Below are positions 3,167-30,555 of a stretch of DNA of 64,000 bases, piece after piece. A program made the position numbers and the translations under genes. Source of the stretch: Escherichia virus TH22; the sequence record MT446396.1; one strand, given 5' to 3'. The notes under the pieces were generated by a model. The model did no database searches and had not been told where the DNA came from. It saw only the letters and a list, made by a program, of their open reading frames with translations. The stretch's first letter is position 1. Every line of letters begins with the position of its first letter.

Positions 3167-4104
3167 TAGCCCACCAATATAGGAGTCGGTGCATCCAGCA
3201 GGTCAAGTTCCTCACGAAGACGTTCTTTTTCCATACGAGCTTCTTCAATTAAACGAACACCATCAACCGTGGTACCACCTGGCATCATCATCCCCTGGTG
3301 TTTAGCCAATACGTTGCCGTTAACTTCCTTAACGAGCGCCGTGGCATAGTCTTTCACCCAACGGTTGTTGTATGCGCCATCTTGAAGTCCAAGGTCCTCA
3401 CCTGCTCTCATGCCGCTTATTCTGCGTGCCGGGTTATCCCACTGTGCGCCAGCATTCCACGGATTATCACAATCGGCCGAAGCAAAACCATATCCAGCTG
3501 TATTACCTACCATTGAATCCACGCCGTTATACGATTTGGTATAAACTTCAATTACAATCACATCTCCCTGACGGAAGTTGCCCATAATTTTAAGTTGTTC
3601 AGTATCGTCATTATACCAGTAATCCGGAAGCGGAACCATCAGGTCTTGCATCATTGAACGATATTGCATAAGCTGTGTAAAATAACCAAGGTCTGCACCA
3701 AAAGCATTTGGACCAAAGCTGTTACATGAGCTACCCATTCCACCGTTAATCCCGGCCAGTCCCAGAACAAAATCTGTGAACCATGGATATGTAGCTTGAC
3801 CATCCATCGAAGTTAATGAACCGACGTTAGTACGAATAATCTGCGTTACTGCAAAAATATTACGGCCTTTTAAATCGAAAACACCATCGCGAAATTTCTG
3901 TTGTGAAACGTCATCATGACCGATATAAAAAGCCTGATAACCTTTGTTATAACCATTATAATGATATTCGCCATATAATTCTAATGCACGCTGGATGCAA
4001 TCATAGACCTGTTCGGTCGTAACTTCGATATTCGTAATTGGAGCACCAAGACGTCGAAGGATTGCATCTTTTAATTGTTTCGGGTTGTATGATTCAGTTG
4101 CCAT
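3166..4104 (-). CDS. 13: Neck protein gp13
   Basis: 312-aa ORF downstream of wac as in T4 (gp13 ~309 aa); stop overlaps gene 14 start. Confidence 0.8.
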
Positions 4105-20065: not shown

Positions 20066-20773
20066 ATGAACTATCTAAAACATTACAATAACTTAATCCA
20101 ACGAGCTAAAAATCGAGCACCCATTGATGGTTACAAAGAGAAACATCACATTATTCCAAGATGTATGGGCGGATTAGATACTGATGAAAATTTAGTCGAG
20201 CTTACCGCTCCTGAACATTTTGTCGCCCACCTGTTATTGGTTAAAATTTATCCAGATAATCACTCGTTAGCACATGCTGCGAAAATTCTAATGGGTTCCA
20301 ACAATTACAATAACAAACAATTTGAATGGGTGCGCATCCGCGCTGTTGAGACTTCCATTAAGTTTCACACTGGACGTAAACGTTCAAAACAAACATGTGA
20401 AAATATTTCAAAAGCTCTTAAAGGTAAGAAATATGGCCCGCGCTCTGAAGAGCATTGCAAAAAGTTGTCAGAAGCAGCAAAGGGTAAAAAGTTCTCTGAA
20501 GAACATTGTAAGAAATTATCAGAAAGAGTGTTTACAGATGATTGGCGAGCAAAAATATCCAAGGCAAATAAAGAAAGAGTTTTGGTAAATCATAGCGAGA
20601 AAATAAAGCAAGGTATTACTGATGATGTCAGAAAACGTTTATCAGAGCTTAATAAAAATGCTCCCCGTCACACCTGTGAACACTGTGGAAAAATAACAAA
20701 TCCAGGCAACTATAAACGTTGGCATGGTGAAAATTGTAAGGTACTTAAAAATGGCGTACTCCGGGAAGTTTAA
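20066..20773 (+). CDS. Free-standing HNH homing endonuclease (mob-like) with repeated basic nucleic-acid-binding motifs
   Basis: N-terminal HNH signature EKHHIIPRCMGG...ENLVELTAPEHFVAHLL; repeated KKxSE(E)HCKKLSE motifs; stop overlaps gene 4 start. Confidence 0.8.
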   Translation: MNYLKHYNNLIQRAKNRAPIDGYKEKHHIIPRCMGGLDTDENLVELTAPEHFVAHLLLVKIYPDNHSLAHAAKILMGSNNYNNKQFEWVRIRAVETSIKFHTGRKRSKQTCENISKALKGKKYGPRSEEHCKKLSEAAKGKKFSEEHCKKLSERVFTDDWRAKISKANKERVLVNHSEKIKQGITDDVRKRLSELNKNAPRHTCEHCGKITNPGNYKRWHGENCKVLKNGVLREV

Positions 20774-21200: not shown

Positions 21201-22024
21201 GTATTTTTACATTTATCAATGAATCTGCAGATAAACCAGGTCCGAAACCCAGTAAATCAGAACAACAATGGGTTGAGATAGGGGTTGAATTTTATACAGC
21301 AAAAGAAAAAGGAATGACCTCGAAGAAGTTTGCTGAAGAGAAAGGAATCAACTATTCGACCTTTACCAAAAGCATGTCGAGGTATCATTCAAGAATTCAG
21401 ACTGCTTATAAAGTATCCAAGCTCAAAAAGAAACCTGCTGGTAAACTTACGAAGGCTGAACGCCAGCTGATAATGGTGAATAGCTTTAGGAAGAGCATAA
21501 GAGATAAGATTGCTAACGAAGGCGCTGCAAGCAACACCAAATCTGCCAGATGGTTCGCAGAGACAATTAAGAAATCAGTTCGCGGCCACGTAACGGCTAA
21601 ACCTCAACCAGGTAAACTTTATGCTTATATCTATGATGCAAAGCATAAGGATACTCTTCCATACTGGGACAAATATCCGTTAATCATTTATCTTGGTCTA
21701 GGTAAGCATAATTTGATGTACGGTTTGAACTTGCACTATATTCCACCGAAGGCACGTCAAGAGTTCCTTGAGGAACTTCTTAAGCAATATGCTAATACTC
21801 CTACGATTACAAACAAGACTCATCTGAAGATTGATTGGTCAAAGGTGAAGGGATTTAAAGGGGCTGACCAGATGATTAAAGCATATATACCCGGCAATAT
21901 AAAAGGTACTATCACTGAAATCAAGCCCAGCGACTGGGCAAATGTGGTATTACTCCCCCTTCAGCAGTTTTTTTCAAAAGGCAAAAGATATTCTTCCCAG
22001 AAAGTATGGAGAAATTCACTTTGA
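21197..22024 (+). CDS. 2: DNA end protector protein gp2
   Basis: Start at MSIFTF (ATGA overlap with gene 4 stop) gives 275 aa (T4 gp2 ~274 aa); in-frame alternative start at 21188. Confidence 0.8.
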
Positions 22025-22680
22025 ATTATCAGTTTATATATTCATCGTTAATTGAAAGGGCCTGTAACAGGGTCCTGATTTCATATAAAGAATCTCATCA
22101 CATCATTCCGAAATGTATGGGTGGTTCAAATGACCCAGATAATCTGGTCGATTTGACTCCTGAGGAACATTATGTAGCCCATCAACTATTGGTTAAAATA
22201 TATCCTACAAATCCAGGTTTAAGTTTTGCTGCTACATCCATGTGCCAGTCAAGCAAGTATTTGAAACGCAATAATAAATTATTTGGTTGGTTAAGACGTA
22301 GACACGCTGACAATATTTCTAAAAGTCAAACCGGTAAAGTTTACTTTAATAATGGTGTCAAATCGATAAAACTATTTCCATGGGAAAATATTCCGGATGG
22401 GTTTGTCAAAGGAAGACATTACAGTCCAACCAAGGGTACAAAACATTCTCGCAATAATGGTCATTTTAAAAATAAAGAGATTCAGGATGAATTGAGAAAG
22501 CGCCGGTGGGAAAAAGATAGGCAAGAAATGTGTAAAAACTTCGGAGTTGATACCGTCGAGCAAGCTCGAGAGTTGGTCTTAGCATATAAAAAGGAATTGC
22601 ATCCTCGATACTGGGTAAAGCCAATGTTGGAACGTTATCCGTTTATGACTAAGCTAAGACTTAACACATTAATAAAATAA
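22006..22680 (+). CDS. Free-standing HNH homing endonuclease (second copy, paralog of 20066)
   Basis: HNH signature [12 protein letters not shown]...[23 protein letters not shown] closely parallels the 20066 protein; start overlaps gene 2 end. Confidence 0.8.
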
Positions 22681-24039: not shown

Positions 24040-24730
<691 letters not shown>

Positions 24731-24790
24731 TGTACAAATGAGTGTAGGTGCAGTATTATGTTCCTACACCAACGAACAAACGGAGTTAAT
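24731..24790 (+). promoter_or_regulatory. Early promoter cassette with -10 inside inverted repeat
   Basis: TGTACA -35, 17-bp spacer, TATTAT -10 flanked by inverted repeat GTGTAGG...CCTACAC; precedes first internal-protein gene. Confidence 0.55.
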
Positions 24791-25123
24791 ATGAACATCA
24801 AAACTTACAACGAGTTTTTAGCCGAATCCGCCATCAATGAGACCAAATCAATTGATGATAGTGAAGGCTCTCTGAAATTTGGTTTAACCAAAAATGCAGA
24901 TGGTGTTTTCTTTCAGATTGGTAATGAACGTTTTCAAACGTCCAAATATTCCAAAGCTGCAGTTGAAGCTGTCCTGAAATCTGGTGGCAAGTGGAAAGGC
25001 AAAGAAGGTACTAAAGAAATTGGTATCGCTGTTGACGGTGGTATGGCTTATTTTAAAATTGGCGATGAACAATTTATTATGTCTGCTCGCGGACGTAAAG
25101 AACTGGCAAAACTTTATAAATAA
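24791..25123 (+). CDS. Internal protein (IP)-like, CTS variant MNIKTYNEFLAE
   Basis: N-terminus resembles the T4 capsid targeting sequence (MKTYQEFIAE) with a (L/I)xE protease site; first of five tandem genes; start chosen at internal Met of track ORF. Confidence 0.65.
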   Translation: MNIKTYNEFLAESAINETKSIDDSEGSLKFGLTKNADGVFFQIGNERFQTSKYSKAAVEAVLKSGGKWKGKEGTKEIGIAVDGGMAYFKIGDEQFIMSARGRKELAKLYK

Positions 25124-25131
25124 GGTTTCTT

Positions 25132-25404
25132 ATGAAAACTTTCAATGAATTTTTCAACGAGTCCCAACTGAATGAAGAAGTAAAAATTAGTAAAGCAGTC
25201 AAAGCTATGATTGACAATATCAATCACCTGTATAGCATTGACTTGACTGACCATATAACAATTGGTAACAAACGCAACTTTTTCGCGTTTGACATTTCAG
25301 AACTTGACCAGAACCAAATTAATAACATTGAGCGTTTTGCCAATGACAAGGGTCTCCGCCATGAGACAGCTGGTTATAAAAAATACGCAATTTATCTAAA
25401 ATAG
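25132..25404 (+). CDS. Internal protein-like, CTS variant MKTFNEFFNES
   Basis: CTS-like N-terminus; 8-nt spacer with RBS after previous gene. Confidence 0.6.
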   Translation: MKTFNEFFNESQLNEEVKISKAVKAMIDNINHLYSIDLTDHITIGNKRNFFAFDISELDQNQINNIERFANDKGLRHETAGYKKYAIYLK

Positions 25405-25412
25405 GATTTCAA

Positions 25413-25712
25413 ATGCAAACGCTCCATGAATTTTTGGTAGAAAACAATTATCTGGCAGAAGCAAAAACCTGGCCTCTGGGCCTTCAGAAGAAAAACACCT
25501 ACAAATGGGTTGACTTCAAAGGTAAAGGCGACGCTGAAGACTTTGACCAGCTGTGTAAAAATGGTTATACCTTCCTTGACTCTAACTATAATAAAATTAC
25601 CTCATTTAGTCAGAAATCCAGCATTGCATATATTGAAACTGGTAAGAACACCCCTAAGAACATCACTGACGACTTCGCAGCTTATGGCGTGATTCGCGGT
25701 TCAAAAATGTAA
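25413..25712 (+). CDS. Internal protein-like, divergent CTS (MQTLHEFLVENNYLAE)
   Basis: Weaker CTS match but same tandem context and spacing. Confidence 0.5.
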   Translation: MQTLHEFLVENNYLAEAKTWPLGLQKKNTYKWVDFKGKGDAEDFDQLCKNGYTFLDSNYNKITSFSQKSSIAYIETGKNTPKNITDDFAAYGVIRGSKM

Positions 25713-25766
25713 TGTACATGATGGGATAACTGCAGTATAATTATCCCATCAACTACTGGAGACAAC
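25712..25766 (+). promoter_or_regulatory. Early promoter cassette (PeSL-like)
   Basis: TGTACA -35, TATAAT -10 within inverted repeat GGGATAA...TTATCCC, conserved leader CATCAACTACTGGAGACAAC then ATG. Confidence 0.7.
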
Positions 25767-26009
25767 ATGAAAACTTATCAAACATTTATAACAGAATCTT
25801 CCCATGGTATGGAAGTTAAACTTGGTCAAGCCCTTGCTGAAGCAGAGCGCCTGTTTGCACGTATCAAAGAACTTGCTGATTCTGTAGATGCATCATCTTT
25901 TAAAGGCGACCAGGGTAAAGTTAAAGCTCTCCTTGCTCTTTGTTCTGATGCAGGCGAAATTGCTAAGAATGGTACCAAGATGAAAAAACGCCTAGAAGAC
26001 TTAAAATAA
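25767..26009 (+). CDS. Internal protein-like, CTS MKTYQTFITES
   Basis: Near-exact CTS; 80 aa; own promoter cassette. Confidence 0.75.
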   Translation: MKTYQTFITESSHGMEVKLGQALAEAERLFARIKELADSVDASSFKGDQGKVKALLALCSDAGEIAKNGTKMKKRLEDLK

Positions 26010-26064
26010 GTATACATGATGGGATAACTGCAGTATAATTATCCCATCAACTACTGGAGACAAC
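26010..26064 (+). promoter_or_regulatory. Early promoter cassette, exact duplicate of 25716-25766
   Basis: Identical sequence ACATGATGGGATAACTGCAGTATAATTATCCCATCAACTACTGGAGACAAC. Confidence 0.7.
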
Positions 26065-26298
26065 ATGAAAACTTATCAAGAATTTATTAATGAAACTGCT
26101 GATGTTAAAGTGCAATTCATTTACACCGGCAAGAAAGATAAAATGGGCGAAATGCCTTATGGAACTCTCCGCGACGCCTTAGATAATTACGGTCAGCTCG
26201 GCGGTGAAGAGTTTGGGGACTATTTTGTTATCCAGGGTCCGGCAGAAGTTATCGAGAAATGGGCTAACAAGTATAAATCAATTTTCCGTAAAAAATAA
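26065..26298 (+). CDS. Internal protein-like, CTS MKTYQEFINET
   Basis: CTS nearly identical to T4 IP consensus; 77 aa. Confidence 0.75.
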   Translation: MKTYQEFINETADVKVQFIYTGKKDKMGEMPYGTLRDALDNYGQLGGEEFGDYFVIQGPAEVIEKWANKYKSIFRKK

Positions 26299-26357
26299 GT
26301 GTACTTTTAGATATGGGATAGTGTATAATTATCCCATCAACTACTGAGGAGAATAAA
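26299..26357 (+). promoter_or_regulatory. Early promoter cassette (PeSL-like)
   Basis: GTGTAC -35, TATAAT -10 within GGGATAG...TATCCC inverted repeat, leader CATCAACTACTGAGGAGAATAAA. Confidence 0.7.
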
Positions 26358-26543
26358 ATGAAACGTTGCGAATTAATTAGAAATGTTACTGCCCTTGTTG
26401 CTGTTACCGCTTTTGGTTTTAGCATGTTTGCTGGCTTTATGTTGAATATGCTTTCAACTTCTGAGAATATAATCTCTTTAGTAGTTGCATTCTTAATTGG
26501 TTCAATCTCTTTCGTTATGGATAAAATCTCTAAAGGTGAATAA
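26358..26543 (+). CDS. Small hydrophobic membrane protein
   Basis: 61 aa, two hydrophobic segments; directly after a promoter cassette. Confidence 0.6.
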   Translation: MKRCELIRNVTALVAVTAFGFSMFAGFMLNMLSTSENIISLVVAFLIGSISFVMDKISKGE

Positions 26544-26950
26544 TGAACGTTGAATATTATGTATATGCAGATTATGAAAATAATCCGTCTAAAGATGAAG
26601 ATAATCGTTTAGGTGTAGATGCTTTCGATTCCCCTGCTGCCGCGTGGCAATGGGTTGAAAGAACCGATATTCCTTACCGTTATATTGAAGTGGTCGACCA
26701 CGCAGGAAACAAGTATCCTAAGGAAGCATATGTTCCTTCTGGGAAGGTGAATTTCCTTCTGTTTGCAGGTGATAACTATTATCCACGCGGTGGGTATACC
26801 GATTTAATCGCTAAAGCATTTTCTGAAGATGAACTGCGTGAAATTATAGAACAGAACAGTAGAAAACCGATGTATGGTTCTGACCGTTTTGACTGGTGGC
26901 AAATTGTTAATGCCAATACCCATACTGTTGTTGATGAGGGTTGTTTATGA
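26543..26950 (+). CDS. Hypothetical protein
   Basis: 135-aa ORF, start overlaps previous stop (TAATG); no recognisable motif. Confidence 0.55.
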   Translation: MNVEYYVYADYENNPSKDEDNRLGVDAFDSPAAAWQWVERTDIPYRYIEVVDHAGNKYPKEAYVPSGKVNFLLFAGDNYYPRGGYTDLIAKAFSEDELREIIEQNSRKPMYGSDRFDWWQIVNANTHTVVDEGCL

Positions 26951-27423
26951 ATATTAAATTTGGACAGACTATCCCTAAAGGTTATGTTGTTGAAATTGAA
27001 ACCTGGGAAAATGACGGTGATAACTATAAAACCCAGACAATATTTGGTGTAGAAGAACAAGAAATCCAACAGTACAAATATATCCTAGAACTTTTCCATG
27101 GTTCGCATTGCAACAACCCGGATAAATGTGGTAATTCAGAATGGGACGTAGTTAAAGACTTTATTATCGCACACATTGAATCTGGTGTAAAATCTGGCCA
27201 ATTAACTCCTGAATTCATTAACAAAACACTTTGTATTGAAAATCTGGAAAACCTGGTTGAAGGTGGCAATGGCCAGGAATTTGAATTATTGTGTTCTCTC
27301 CAGGAATTGCTGGGCGAGCCGGTGGAATATGATAGCGTTTTGCGCGTAGTTTCGTGGGTAAAATTATACATCATCGAAGAAGAAATCCAAATACCAAACG
27401 TTAAAGCACTTGATATGCTTTAA
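26947..27423 (+). CDS. Hypothetical protein
   Basis: ATG at 26947 overlaps previous stop (ATGA); track ORF start at 26941 is a non-ATG codon. Confidence 0.55.
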   Translation: MNIKFGQTIPKGYVVEIETWENDGDNYKTQTIFGVEEQEIQQYKYILELFHGSHCNNPDKCGNSEWDVVKDFIIAHIESGVKSGQLTPEFINKTLCIENLENLVEGGNGQEFELLCSLQELLGEPVEYDSVLRVVSWVKLYIIEEEIQIPNVKALDML

Positions 27424-27501
27424 TAAAAACGCGTTATTATTAATAAGTACCCTCTATTACCAAAGGTTCTTCCCTCAAAGAGCCTTTCATAATAGAATTA
27501 A

Positions 27502-28764: not shown

Positions 28765-28844
28765 GTGTACATCCGAATTGACCGGGTGCATAATGATTCC
28801 ATACTGAGTTACACACTGAATCACAAAAACTTTGGAGAAATAAA
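28765..28844 (+). promoter_or_regulatory. Early promoter cassette (B-type)
   Basis: GTGTAC -35, CATAAT -10, leader GATTCCATACTGAGTTAC...GGAGAAATAAA. Confidence 0.65.
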
Positions 28845-29270
28845 ATGAACTTTCTGACCCTGACCTCTGCATTTTCTGTTACCCGCATCACTAACAAAAT
28901 GGTTGCTGACGAAGTATGTGAAATCTGCATTCGTGAAGATGCACTTATCCATCTGACTTCAACCCAGATTGTTGCCATCGCTAAGTCCCTTAATTCTGAA
29001 CTGAAGGTAAACACCAAACAGTCAAAAGAATCCATCATTGAATTAATCCAAGCTGAAATGATTGAATTCCCAATTGAAGAAGTTAAAGAAGAAAAAATCC
29101 AGTCCAAATCTGGTAACGCCCGTGACATTTGCTTCCAGGCATTTGCAGAAATTGATATGAATGATAATGCAGCTCGCCGCGCTCTGATTGATGTTCTGGT
29201 TACCACCCATGATATCAAAAAGACTGTTGTTCAGTCATATGCTTCCAACTTCCGCAAAGCTCAAAAATAA
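28845..29270 (+). CDS. Hypothetical protein, paralog of 29723 (shared C-terminal domain)
   Basis: C-terminus ICFQAFAEIDMNDNAARRALIDVLV...VVQSYASNFRKAQK closely parallels the 29723 protein. Confidence 0.7.
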   Translation: MNFLTLTSAFSVTRITNKMVADEVCEICIREDALIHLTSTQIVAIAKSLNSELKVNTKQSKESIIELIQAEMIEFPIEEVKEEKIQSKSGNARDICFQAFAEIDMNDNAARRALIDVLVTTHDIKKTVVQSYASNFRKAQK

Positions 29271-29281
29271 TTGAGAAAAGT

Positions 29282-29352
29282 GTTTTACTTCCAGGTGGGA
29301 TAGTGTATAATTATCCCATACTGAGTTGCCAAATAAAACACTGGAGAATAAA
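29282..29352 (+). promoter_or_regulatory. Early promoter cassette (hybrid type)
   Basis: GTTTTAC -35, TATAAT -10 in GGGATAG...TATCCC inverted repeat, B-type leader ending CTGGAGAATAAA. Confidence 0.65.
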
Positions 29353-29649
29353 ATGTTTAACGCACCTGCATGGCACGCTACCCAAGCTCAAGAAGAAAAC
29401 AAAGCAATCATTTCTGCTAAAATTGAAGCTCAACTGAATGAATTGTGCGAAACTGCTTCTGAAGAAGTTGTTGCAATCATCAAACAGTATCCTGCATCCA
29501 ACTATTCTCTGGCATGCATTAAAACAGAAATGGTTAACTTATGGCGCAAGAACAAGAAAACTTTCTTGGGTATGCAGTATCAAGCAATTGCATCTGCAGT
29601 AGTAAACATGTATGACTTTGAAGTTTATTTCCCAACTTCTGAAAATTAA
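29353..29649 (+). CDS. Hypothetical protein
   Basis: Start at ATG after cassette leader (internal Met of track ORF); 98 aa. Confidence 0.6.
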   Translation: MFNAPAWHATQAQEENKAIISAKIEAQLNELCETASEEVVAIIKQYPASNYSLACIKTEMVNLWRKNKKTFLGMQYQAIASAVVNMYDFEVYFPTSEN

Positions 29650-29650
29650 T

Positions 29651-29722
29651 GTGTACTTTGGAATTTGACTAAGGCATAATGATTCCATACTGAGTTACCA
29701 AATAAACAAACGGGATAATAAA
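29651..29722 (+). promoter_or_regulatory. Early promoter cassette (B-type)
   Basis: GTGTAC -35, CATAAT -10, leader GATTCCATACTGAGTTACCAAATAAAC. Confidence 0.65.
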
Positions 29723-30166
29723 ATGAAAACTTCAAAACTGGTTAAGTACGTTAAACTGGCATTAAACAACTCTTCTGAAGCTGAAGCACAATCCGCAGCA
29801 CGTATGTTCTTCAAACGTCTGACAGCTGAAGGTATTTCATTTAACCCGGCAGTATTTGGTATCACTCGTGGCGAAGCTGTTAAACTGGCAACTCTGGCAG
29901 GTAAAATTTTTAAAGGTCTGAATGATGGACAGGTTAAAGCAGAAGTTAAACCTACTCCTAAAGCTGAACCAAAAGCTGAGCGTAAGGCACCTAAACGCTC
30001 CGGTATGAGCAACAAAGATTTATGCTATGATATGTTCAAAACTGTTAATATGTCTAATGGTGCCGCTCGTAGGGCTGTTATTGATATGATTGTGCGTGAG
30101 TTTGGATTCAACAAAGCATCAGTTCAGTCTTATGCTTCCAACTTCCGCAAAGAATTTGAAATTTAA
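29723..30166 (+). CDS. Hypothetical protein, paralog of 28845 (shared C-terminal domain)
   Basis: C-terminus LCYDMFKTVNMSNGAARRAVIDMIV...SVQSYASNFRKEFEI; Lys/Ala/Pro-rich linker. Confidence 0.7.
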   Translation: MKTSKLVKYVKLALNNSSEAEAQSAARMFFKRLTAEGISFNPAVFGITRGEAVKLATLAGKIFKGLNDGQVKAEVKPTPKAEPKAERKAPKRSGMSNKDLCYDMFKTVNMSNGAARRAVIDMIVREFGFNKASVQSYASNFRKEFEI

Positions 30167-30174
30167 TTCAAAAA

Positions 30175-30249
30175 GGGGGTATACAAGCCCCCTGCTTTAA
30201 GGCATAATGATTCCATACTGAGTTACACAATAAAACACTGGAGAATAAA
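30175..30249 (+). promoter_or_regulatory. Early promoter cassette with -35 in hairpin loop
   Basis: GGGGG-TATACAA-GCCCCC stem-loop carrying the -35, then CATAAT -10 and B-type leader. Confidence 0.65.
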
Positions 30250-30555
30250 ATGAAATTCATCATCAACCTGGCGCTTGTTGACTTTGATAAAACTGGTAAT
30301 TTCGCATCTGCTGAAAATATGATTCGTAACACCAAGTTTAAAGTGCAAGTTCAACAGGCGGTAGCAAAAGAGTTCTTTACTGATAAATTAACTAACGTTG
30401 TTAATCACCTGAATGTGCAAGTTAAATTTACTCGTGAAGCAGAAACTACTGTTGCATTTGATTTTGACTGCCAATACCATGATGAATATGTTCGCCGTAT
30501 CCTGGATATTGTGTCTGATGAACTTTACTATGGTGTGCAGGAAAATAAAATCTAA
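30250..30555 (+). CDS. Hypothetical protein
   Basis: 101 aa directly after cassette. Confidence 0.6.
   Translation: MKFIINLALVDFDKTGNFASAENMIRNTKFKVQVQQAVAKEFFTDKLTNVVNHLNVQVKFTREAETTVAFDFDCQYHDEYVRRILDIVSDELYYGVQENKI

Follow-up and report, generated by a model that had tools for sequence, protein, structure and literature searches.

Organisation of the internal-protein locus

The window analysed here, 64,000 nucleotides of Escherichia virus TH22, belongs to a T4-type phage from the VR7/SP18 group of the genus Gaprivervirus. It contains a polymorphic internal-protein (IP) locus extending from 57B to trna.4, and the repeat that concerns us sits within it. The gene order, taken from the ORFs of the window and the annotations of relatives, is 57B, ORF156, ip9, gp154, linker, ip5, linker, ip6, linker, trna.4, trna.3, one more ORF, tRNA-Met and tRNA-Arg (Table 1). 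The IP locus has the same borders in the RB15 and GiZh records, and no record of the phage collection covers more than 86% of positions 24500-27500.

All five small genes of the IP locus open with a variant of the leader MKTYQEFIxE, which reads MKTYQTFITE in the 80-aa gene and MKTYQEFINE in ip6, with further variants in ip9, gp154 and ORF156. The T4 prohead protease cleaves the leader of internal proteins after Glu. This N-terminal signal sends the T4 internal proteins into the capsid (PMC12373910; PMC3012670). The initial annotation had recognised two IP genes behind the repeat, and both ORFs indeed fall into PHROG families of internal head or internal virion proteins and carry a leader of the form MKTYQxFIxE; the PHROG match of the gp154 homologue is also to internal head proteins. 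For the ORF156-like gene, the ORF list starts at ATG 24758 (24758-25123, 121 aa), whereas the start at ATG 24791 (110 aa) is favoured by the leader MNIKTYNEFLAE, by a preceding GGAG and by the annotations of several relatives.

At the left border, the 57B homologue has Pfam PF23474 (Acb1) among its precomputed hits and is named 'anti-CBASS protein Acb1' in EAWsc9 (L006, PQ341120.1), so that an anti-defence gene directly adjoins the IP cassettes. Annotation pipelines mislabel other genes of this region: in EAWsc9, spurious-looking names are 'profilin' (ORF156), 'homing endonuclease' (gp154 homologue) and 'ribosome maturation factor RimM' (the ORF that follows trna.3).

Table 1. Features of the IP locus, in window coordinates
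Feature	Position	Strand	Description
57B homologue, left border of IP locus	24275-24730		Gene order; annotations of relatives
Locus-entry linker, type C, after 57B	24731-24790	+	TGTACA, 17 nt, TATTAT; unrelated stem GTGTAGG (24742-24748) / CCTACAC (24763-24769) brackets the -10
Three packed leader-bearing genes	24791-25712	+	ORF156-like (24791-25123, MNIKTYNEFLAE), ip9 (25132-25404), gp154-like (25413-25712); no promoters between
Early-promoter-like site 1	25713-25741	+	TGTACA (25713-25718), 17 nt, TATAAT; consensus scan, 10/12 positions
Linker copy 1, type A	25715-25781	+	Exact 67-nt identity with copy 2; between gp154-like gene and 80-aa ip5-like gene
Inverted repeat 1	25719-25751	+	11-bp stem TGATGGGATAA (25719-25729) / TTATCCCATCA (25741-25751); 11-nt loop with most of the -10
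Cassette gene between repeats, 80-aa Ip5-like internal protein	25767-26009	+	phrog_3499 'internal head protein', E 2e-41
Early-promoter-like site 2	26011-26039	+	TATACA (26011-26016), 17 nt, TATAAT; consensus scan, 10/12 positions
Linker copy 2, type A	26013-26079	+	Exact 67-nt identity with copy 1; between ip5-like gene and ip6
Inverted repeat 2	26017-26049	+	Identical to inverted repeat 1
ip6, 77-aa internal protein	26065-26298	+	phrog_8111 'internal virion protein', E 2e-51
Third linker, diverged, type B, before trna.4	26299-26357	+	GTGTAC; stem ATGGGATA / TATCCCAT around TATAAT (26324-26329); then GAGGAG; stem covariation across clades
trna.4 homologue, 61 aa, conserved right border of IP locus	26358-26543	+	phrog_1692; annotations of relatives

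The repeat was originally described as an exact 66-nt sequence at 25716-25781 and 26014-26079. This string does occur twice on the + strand with 0 mismatches, but it is one base short: a repeat search and a separate scan both gave an exact identity of 67 nt (linker copies 1 and 2 in Table 1). The spacing, announced as about 300 bp, measures 298, and comparing the window with itself recovers a direct repeat with this period. Past the exact core, a looser identity of 89% over 95 nt reaches 25809 and 26107. No match to the 66-nt string arose in 100 dinucleotide shuffles, and none is expected by chance. Rfam has no family over the linkers, its only matches being two tRNAs.

Such exactness is moderately unusual. 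Among the 36 loci compared, VR7 has an exact linker pair of 73 nt and the window one of 67 nt, while 33 other loci share 0-37 nt. This points to a recent exchange or gene conversion, although purifying selection on promoter, ribosome binding site and leader may account for some of the exactness, since the core of the type-A linker is near-invariant between genomes.

Could one IP gene have been duplicated in tandem recently, its two bodies diverging afterwards? The head-to-tail layout with its 298-bp period would suit such an event. However, the ip5-like and ip6 proteins align only over residues 1-12, which indicates that neither is a diverged duplicate of the other; their PHROG families differ, and each body has its own near-identical orthologues elsewhere (98.6% and 100%). 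We thus reject this scenario, to which we attach practically no credence.

Repeats of related design occur elsewhere in the window. The hairpin core GGGATA..TATCCC has four occurrences, against 0.01 expected, including one at 29297-29317, beyond linkers 1-3. A second promoter-leader family has four copies (28765-28850, 29282-29355, 29651-29725 and 30179-30252, with spacings of 517, 369 and 528), each before a small non-IP ORF, downstream of the tRNAs. It shares ATAAT(G/T)AT(T/C)CCAT and GGAGAATAAAATG with the IP linkers; its copy at 29282 has the same TGGGATAGTGTATAATTATCCCA hairpin as the trna.4 linker, and that at 30179 has a GGGGG/CCCCC stem around the -35, resembling a classical promoter-early stem-loop (PeSL).

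Predicted expression signals and the hairpin around the -10

The expression signals read from the repeat in the initial annotation are all in place: a -10 hexamer TATAAT in both copies (25736-25741 and 26034-26039), a ribosome site GGAG (25758-25761 and 26056-26059) and a start codon ATG (25767 and 26065) followed by the MKTYQ codons. Each candidate promoter has an A-rich stretch upstream and a 17-nt spacer, and its 10/12 agreement is with a sigma-70/T4-early-like consensus. The -35-like hexamer lies only partly within the exact repeat (four of its six bases in copy 1). Each copy would combine a putative sigma-70-like promoter, a Shine-Dalgarno sequence and a start codon in one module.

An inverted repeat GGGATAA/TTATCCC had been described as enclosing the -10. 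The inverted repeat is present, but its stem has 11 bp, not 7, and only the last T of the -10 belongs to the right arm, the other five bases lying in the loop. The hairpin folds at -13.3 kcal/mol as RNA (z -3.7, with 0 of 200 shuffles as good) and at -9.2 kcal/mol as DNA (z -5.0, again with no shuffle as good). Over 57 distinct promoter-bearing linkers drawn from Gaprivervirus, Tequatrovirus, JS98-like phages and more distant T4-likes, the median folding z against mononucleotide shuffles is -4.05. At least nine unrelated stems bracket the -10 in these phages: TGATGGGATAA, ATGGGATA, GTGTAGG, GGTCTAG, GATAGGGTA, AGGGTTAT, AGGTCTATAG, GGGCT.TAG and TGATGAG.

A formal count of pairs was kept to the trna.4 linkers, since the left arm stands in another register in the JS98-like, type-D and some ip linkers. 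In the alignment of 12 orthologous trna.4 linkers from three clades (A3), 95.8% of cells pair, versus 36-58% when the partner is slid, and three pairs are changed on both sides, which amounts to few independent events. As a test of pairing in RNA against pairing in DNA, the variant stems present seven G-T versus two A-C oppositions on the sense strand, a bias that is at most suggestive, these events being non-independent. The pairing in the trna.4 linkers suggests, in a way that is supportive rather than conclusive, that the 11-bp inverted repeat is selected as a base-paired structure across clades. That a stem is kept, rather than one particular sequence, argues against a sequence-specific protein site.

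What might this hairpin do? We rejected a canonical intrinsic terminator: there is no U-run after the stem, and the terminator scan called none at the linker hairpin. The transcript of the linker's own promoter would start inside the right arm, so the hairpin could form only in RNA reading through from the putative promoter further upstream (24731-24759). Our best guess is that it forms in this read-through RNA, where it could define or stabilise the upstream message at its 3' end, or act as an insulator, as a weak, overlapping counterpart of the PeSL stem-loop.

In T4, promoters lying inside hairpins (gene e, soc, I-TevI) separate read-through from promoter-own transcripts. The window linkers resemble them in that the left hairpin arm is upstream of the predicted transcription start, so that only read-through RNA could fold. 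However, 6 nt separate the end of the right arm (25751) from GGAG (25758), and hence the ribosome site is not sequestered. Four distant T4-like contigs (L029, L031, L033 and L035, at ~3430-3500, upstream of trna.4) have an 11-nt inverted repeat ATCTCCATTTG ... CAAATGGAGAT that links the spacer just past the -35 to the Shine-Dalgarno sequence. Their ribosome site would be hidden in read-through RNA and free in RNA from the linker promoter, the same layout as in the T4 hairpin promoters.

A bolder reading, which we consider rather improbable, is that the -10 hairpin is no by-product but a dedicated signal, conserved from one T4-like genus to another. It would be either a structure-specific exchange hotspot, with cruciform or hairpin extrusion drawing breaks or template switching and thereby directing the exchange of cassettes to the linkers, or an RNA switch separating read-through from promoter-own transcripts. 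If this were true, the IP locus would constitute an integrase-free, integron-like array for anti-restriction proteins.

Probable cassette exchange at the linkers

The comparison covered about 45 related loci; breakpoints were placed by pairwise BLAST, locus by locus, and linkers were located by a Hamming scan. The same linker stands before every promoter-bearing cassette in 10 relatives, at two to three copies each. VR25 aligns up to window position 25789 and again from 26013, on overlapping VR25 bases 2707-2781; two linkers and the 80-aa gene of the window correspond to a single linker in VR25, and the two loci differ here by exactly 298 bp. With VR7 and VR20, homology extends up to 25798 and resumes from 26003, and the same linkers enclose an unrelated 92-aa gene, gp153. 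In VR26, P8 and RZ, position 25420 is joined to 25767, ip5 coming directly behind ip9 and replacing gp154 and linker 1. EAWsc9 is colinear with the window to 26111 and then carries another gene instead of ip6, while SP18 and CJ20 have the left half of a type-A linker fused to the trna.4 leader. The metagenomic contig L038 contains a chimeric linker whose joint lies inside ATAATTATCCC. The identical 80-aa protein was found in 82 blocks of the assembly collection; independent assemblies place it behind ip9, gp154 or gp153.

The repeat had been proposed as a substrate for deleting or exchanging an IP gene, to be checked by looking for repeat-bounded indels in related genomes. These loci bear the proposal out: one 298-bp unit is missing from VR25, another gene body occupies the slot in VR7 and VR20, ip5 occupies another slot in VR26, P8 and RZ, and in every comparison the boundaries of indels and replacements coincide with linkers. 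The closest relative also changes from one segment to the next: EAWsc9 and P8 for orf156 (99.7%), VR7 and VR20 for gp154 (97.0%), VR26 for the ip5 body (98.6%), VR25 for the ip6 body (100%) and TH40 for trna.4 (99.5%).

Is the identity of the copies compatible with shared function alone, selection keeping promoter, ribosome site and leader alike while recombination plays no real part? In line with this explanation, the core of the type-A linker (GGGATAAC...GGAGACAAC) hardly varies between genomes or positions, and the leader is conserved as a protein sequence. Yet identity also runs through the spacer, the loop and synonymous positions, and the copies within a genome share anywhere from 0 to 73 exact nucleotides, a range that pure selection would not give. 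Nor would selection account for indel and replacement boundaries at linkers in every comparison, or for the chimeric linker of L038 and the per-cassette mosaic. We thus hold this explanation to be unlikely.

The joints are spread over ~110 nt, at six or more positions from the -35 to codon 16: one at the stop codon/-35 (26003), one within the hairpin of L038, one in CATCAACTAC of SP18 and CJ20, one at the start codon itself (25420|25767) and two in the coding sequence, following codons 11 (25798) and 16 (26111). A scatter of this kind is in keeping with homologous exchange along a stretch of shared sequence and less so with a mechanism acting at a fixed site, and together with the L038 joint it led us to reject fixed-site recombination as the main explanation. 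Small patches of homology are all that T4 recombination needs, according to Singer 1982 as cited by Arbiol 2010 (PMC2839356).

An integron-like, structure-specific exchange, in which the hairpin would be recognised or cut by a dedicated protein such as a cruciform-cutting endonuclease, seems highly doubtful to us. The hairpin is kept as a structure in spite of many unrelated stem sequences, one natural joint (L038) falls in its right arm, and a similar idea was put forward for PeSL stems by Arbiol 2010 (PMC2839356). However, scattered joints are what homologous exchange predicts, and no recombinase is known or seen beside the locus: none of the 8 locus ORFs scanned matches a recombinase family in PHROG, and none is annotated in the locus of relatives.

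The repeat therefore very probably represents two copies of an intercistronic linker module of the IP locus, whose role in cassette exchange is shown by the comparison of relatives and whose role in expression is read from sequence. Each copy would supply the downstream cassette with an early-type promoter, a GGAG site and the start of a ~10-residue capsid-targeting leader. In T4, internal proteins enter the prohead by means of such a leader, which is subsequently removed by cleavage. Because the same ~70-110 nt precede unrelated gene bodies, they act as portable homology. Through it, the general homologous recombination of the phage could lose, gain or exchange entire cassettes, with the reading frame and the expression signals intact. 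In the window, crossing over of copy 1 with copy 2 would excise the 80-aa gene, so that the locus came to resemble that of VR25; the opposite event, or recombination with a relative infecting the same cell, would add or replace a cassette.

The junction gp154-linker-ip5 is peculiar to the window among the assemblies searched. In other genomes where ip5 follows gp154, the two genes are separated by a different, terminator-like linker, GGGGATAATTATCCCC followed by TTTTTAT, and only the window has a full type-A linker at this place. Hairpins of the promoter-less gp154-ip5 linker, GGGGATAATTATCCCC or GGGGCTAATTACCCC and then TTTTTAT, are located at 2718-2762 in L006, at 2074-2119 in L014 and at ~2455-2500 in L037, L039, L042 and L043; this linker resembles a type-A linker that has lost its loop and -10. 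The type-A and terminator-like linkers share the 25-nt sequence TGGAGACAACATGAAAACTTATCAA, which is likely to be a crossover zone. A junction-specific 42-mer (type-A linker plus ip5 codons) is absent from IMG/VR and from JGI metagenomes in exact-pattern scans, no GenBank phage record spans the junction, and the cassette order gp154, ip5, ip6 occurs in no other assembly searched. We read this junction as the probable product of a recent recombination or conversion.

The same absences would be expected of an assembly error, in which a short repeat in a mixed phage population misled the assembler into producing the second copy or into joining gp154, linker and ip5. The shared TGGAGACAACATGAAAACTTATCAA could conceivably have served for such a misjoin, and the window is strongly mosaic, matching UPEC07 and TH55 perfectly up to 22062 and diverging thereafter. 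However, the two-linker layout, with a spacing of 298-334 bp, recurs in many independently sequenced genomes, including VR7 with its exact 73-nt pair, which makes an artefact unlikely for this architecture. Moreover, ordinary reads span a 67-nt repeat, and the sequence shared with the alternative parental junctions is only 15-25 nt, below usual assembly k-mers. An artefact is accordingly very improbable.

The mosaic structure of the window is not confined to the IP locus. Positions 1-22062 are 100.0% identical to TH55 (MT446421.1) and UPEC07 (MW250787.1); mismatches begin after 22062 and are dense from 23907, and identity is only ~93% over 32000-56000. This switch of relatedness, at ~22.06-23.9 kb, is not at the IP repeat and adjoins a gene that the UPEC07 annotation names a homing endonuclease (~22006-22680 in the window). 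A 122-nt direct repeat with 70% identity (20132-20253 and 22084-22205) lies in two paralogous genes, homing endonucleases according to UPEC07, that flank the head-completion and DNA-end-protector genes.

Relation to known shuffling elements

Two later articles, Arbiol 2010 (PMC2839356) and Comeau 2014 (PMC4122927), describe how Repoila, Tetart, Bouet and Krisch (1994, EMBO J 13:4181) found PeSL-like sequences at two variable IP loci of T-even phages. As these articles present them, the T-even elements are built on T4 early promoters, have AT-rich stem-loops of lower strength and were suggested to underlie the shuffling of IP genes. The PeSLs themselves were defined in RB49/phi1, PST/T4 and nt-1/KVP40, and neighbouring copies recombine, deleting or circularising the genes between them (PMC2839356; PMC4122927). 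For Arbiol 2010 (PMC2839356), the IP elements and PeSLs are analogous rather than homologous.

The window linkers share with the T-even elements, as far as the later accounts describe these, the locus (57B to trna.4), small genes with a conserved N-terminal leader and, before each promoter-bearing cassette, an element of ~60-80 nt with a weak AT-rich stem-loop. Where the T-even elements have a T4-early-type promoter, the window linkers have a candidate that agrees with the consensus at 10 of 12 positions. As in T-even phages, elements lie both 5' and 3' of the IP ORFs (the two type-A copies and the third linker), also in relatives; the promoter-associated stem-loop is weak and AT-rich, with its 11-bp stem at -13.3 kcal/mol; and the downstream genes carry predicted capsid-targeting leaders, MKTYQTFITE and MKTYQEFINE. 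The RB15 record (Z35082.1) has Ip5, Ip9, Ip7 and Ip8 between 57B and trna.4, in the same layout and with detectably homologous linkers: blastn to this and other Tequatrovirus records gives 81-84% over 50-57 nt, the RB15 ip9 linker is 83% identical over ~50 nt, with the common motif TTATCC(C/T)ATCAACTACTGAGGAGAATAAAATG, and the trna.4 linkers can be aligned in register.

The differences are the genus, Gaprivervirus here versus Tequatrovirus; the -35 (TGTACA/TATACA versus GTTTAC) and -10 (TATAAT versus TACTAT/GATACT) hexamers; a stem sequence altered through compensatory changes; and, in the window, copies of unusual exactness and a cassette order not found elsewhere. The window linkers are thus a further instance, in another genus, of the T-even IP-locus element. 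This instance is real and well supported, and it is not a new observation, as the architecture of the T-even IP locus was already published (PMC2839356, PMC4122927).

Like PeSLs, the window linkers are composite modules of putative promoter, stem-loop, Shine-Dalgarno sequence and ATG, repeated between small non-essential genes and situated at the boundaries of indels and replacements between close relatives. However, a PeSL stem-loop is upstream of the promoter, usually GC-rich, and a terminator, whereas the window stem overlaps the -10, is AT-rich and lacks a U-run, and the homology extends into coding sequence, through the leader codons. With this overlap, no U-run and an empty terminator scan at the hairpin, the linkers are not PeSLs in the strict sense of Arbiol 2010.

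A parallel with integron cassettes and their attC sites, by analogy only, lies in the array of small unrelated promoter-proximal genes, in the imperfect inverted repeats with structure kept over sequence, and in the gain, loss and reordering of cassettes. In contrast, the locus has no recognisable integrase, gives each cassette its own putative promoter and shows joints that are not at one fixed site; with at least six joint positions and no recombinase match in the 8 locus ORFs scanned, we rejected its classification as an integron cassette array.

The current understanding of the IP locus is thus unchanged and is confirmed in another genus; the mechanism itself was described thirty years ago, in the 1994 work as later articles relate it. 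The locus is expected to be unstable, and recombination at the 67-nt repeat could plausibly eliminate the 80-aa gene. T4 injects its internal proteins along with its DNA, and each of the three, Ip1, Ip2 and Ip3, inactivates a different restriction enzyme of the GmrSD type (PMC12373910). IP genes that can be swapped as ready-to-express, ready-to-package cassettes would offer a simple route to rapid change of host range, and such swapping may be relevant to phage therapy cocktails and to the reading of phage pangenomes.
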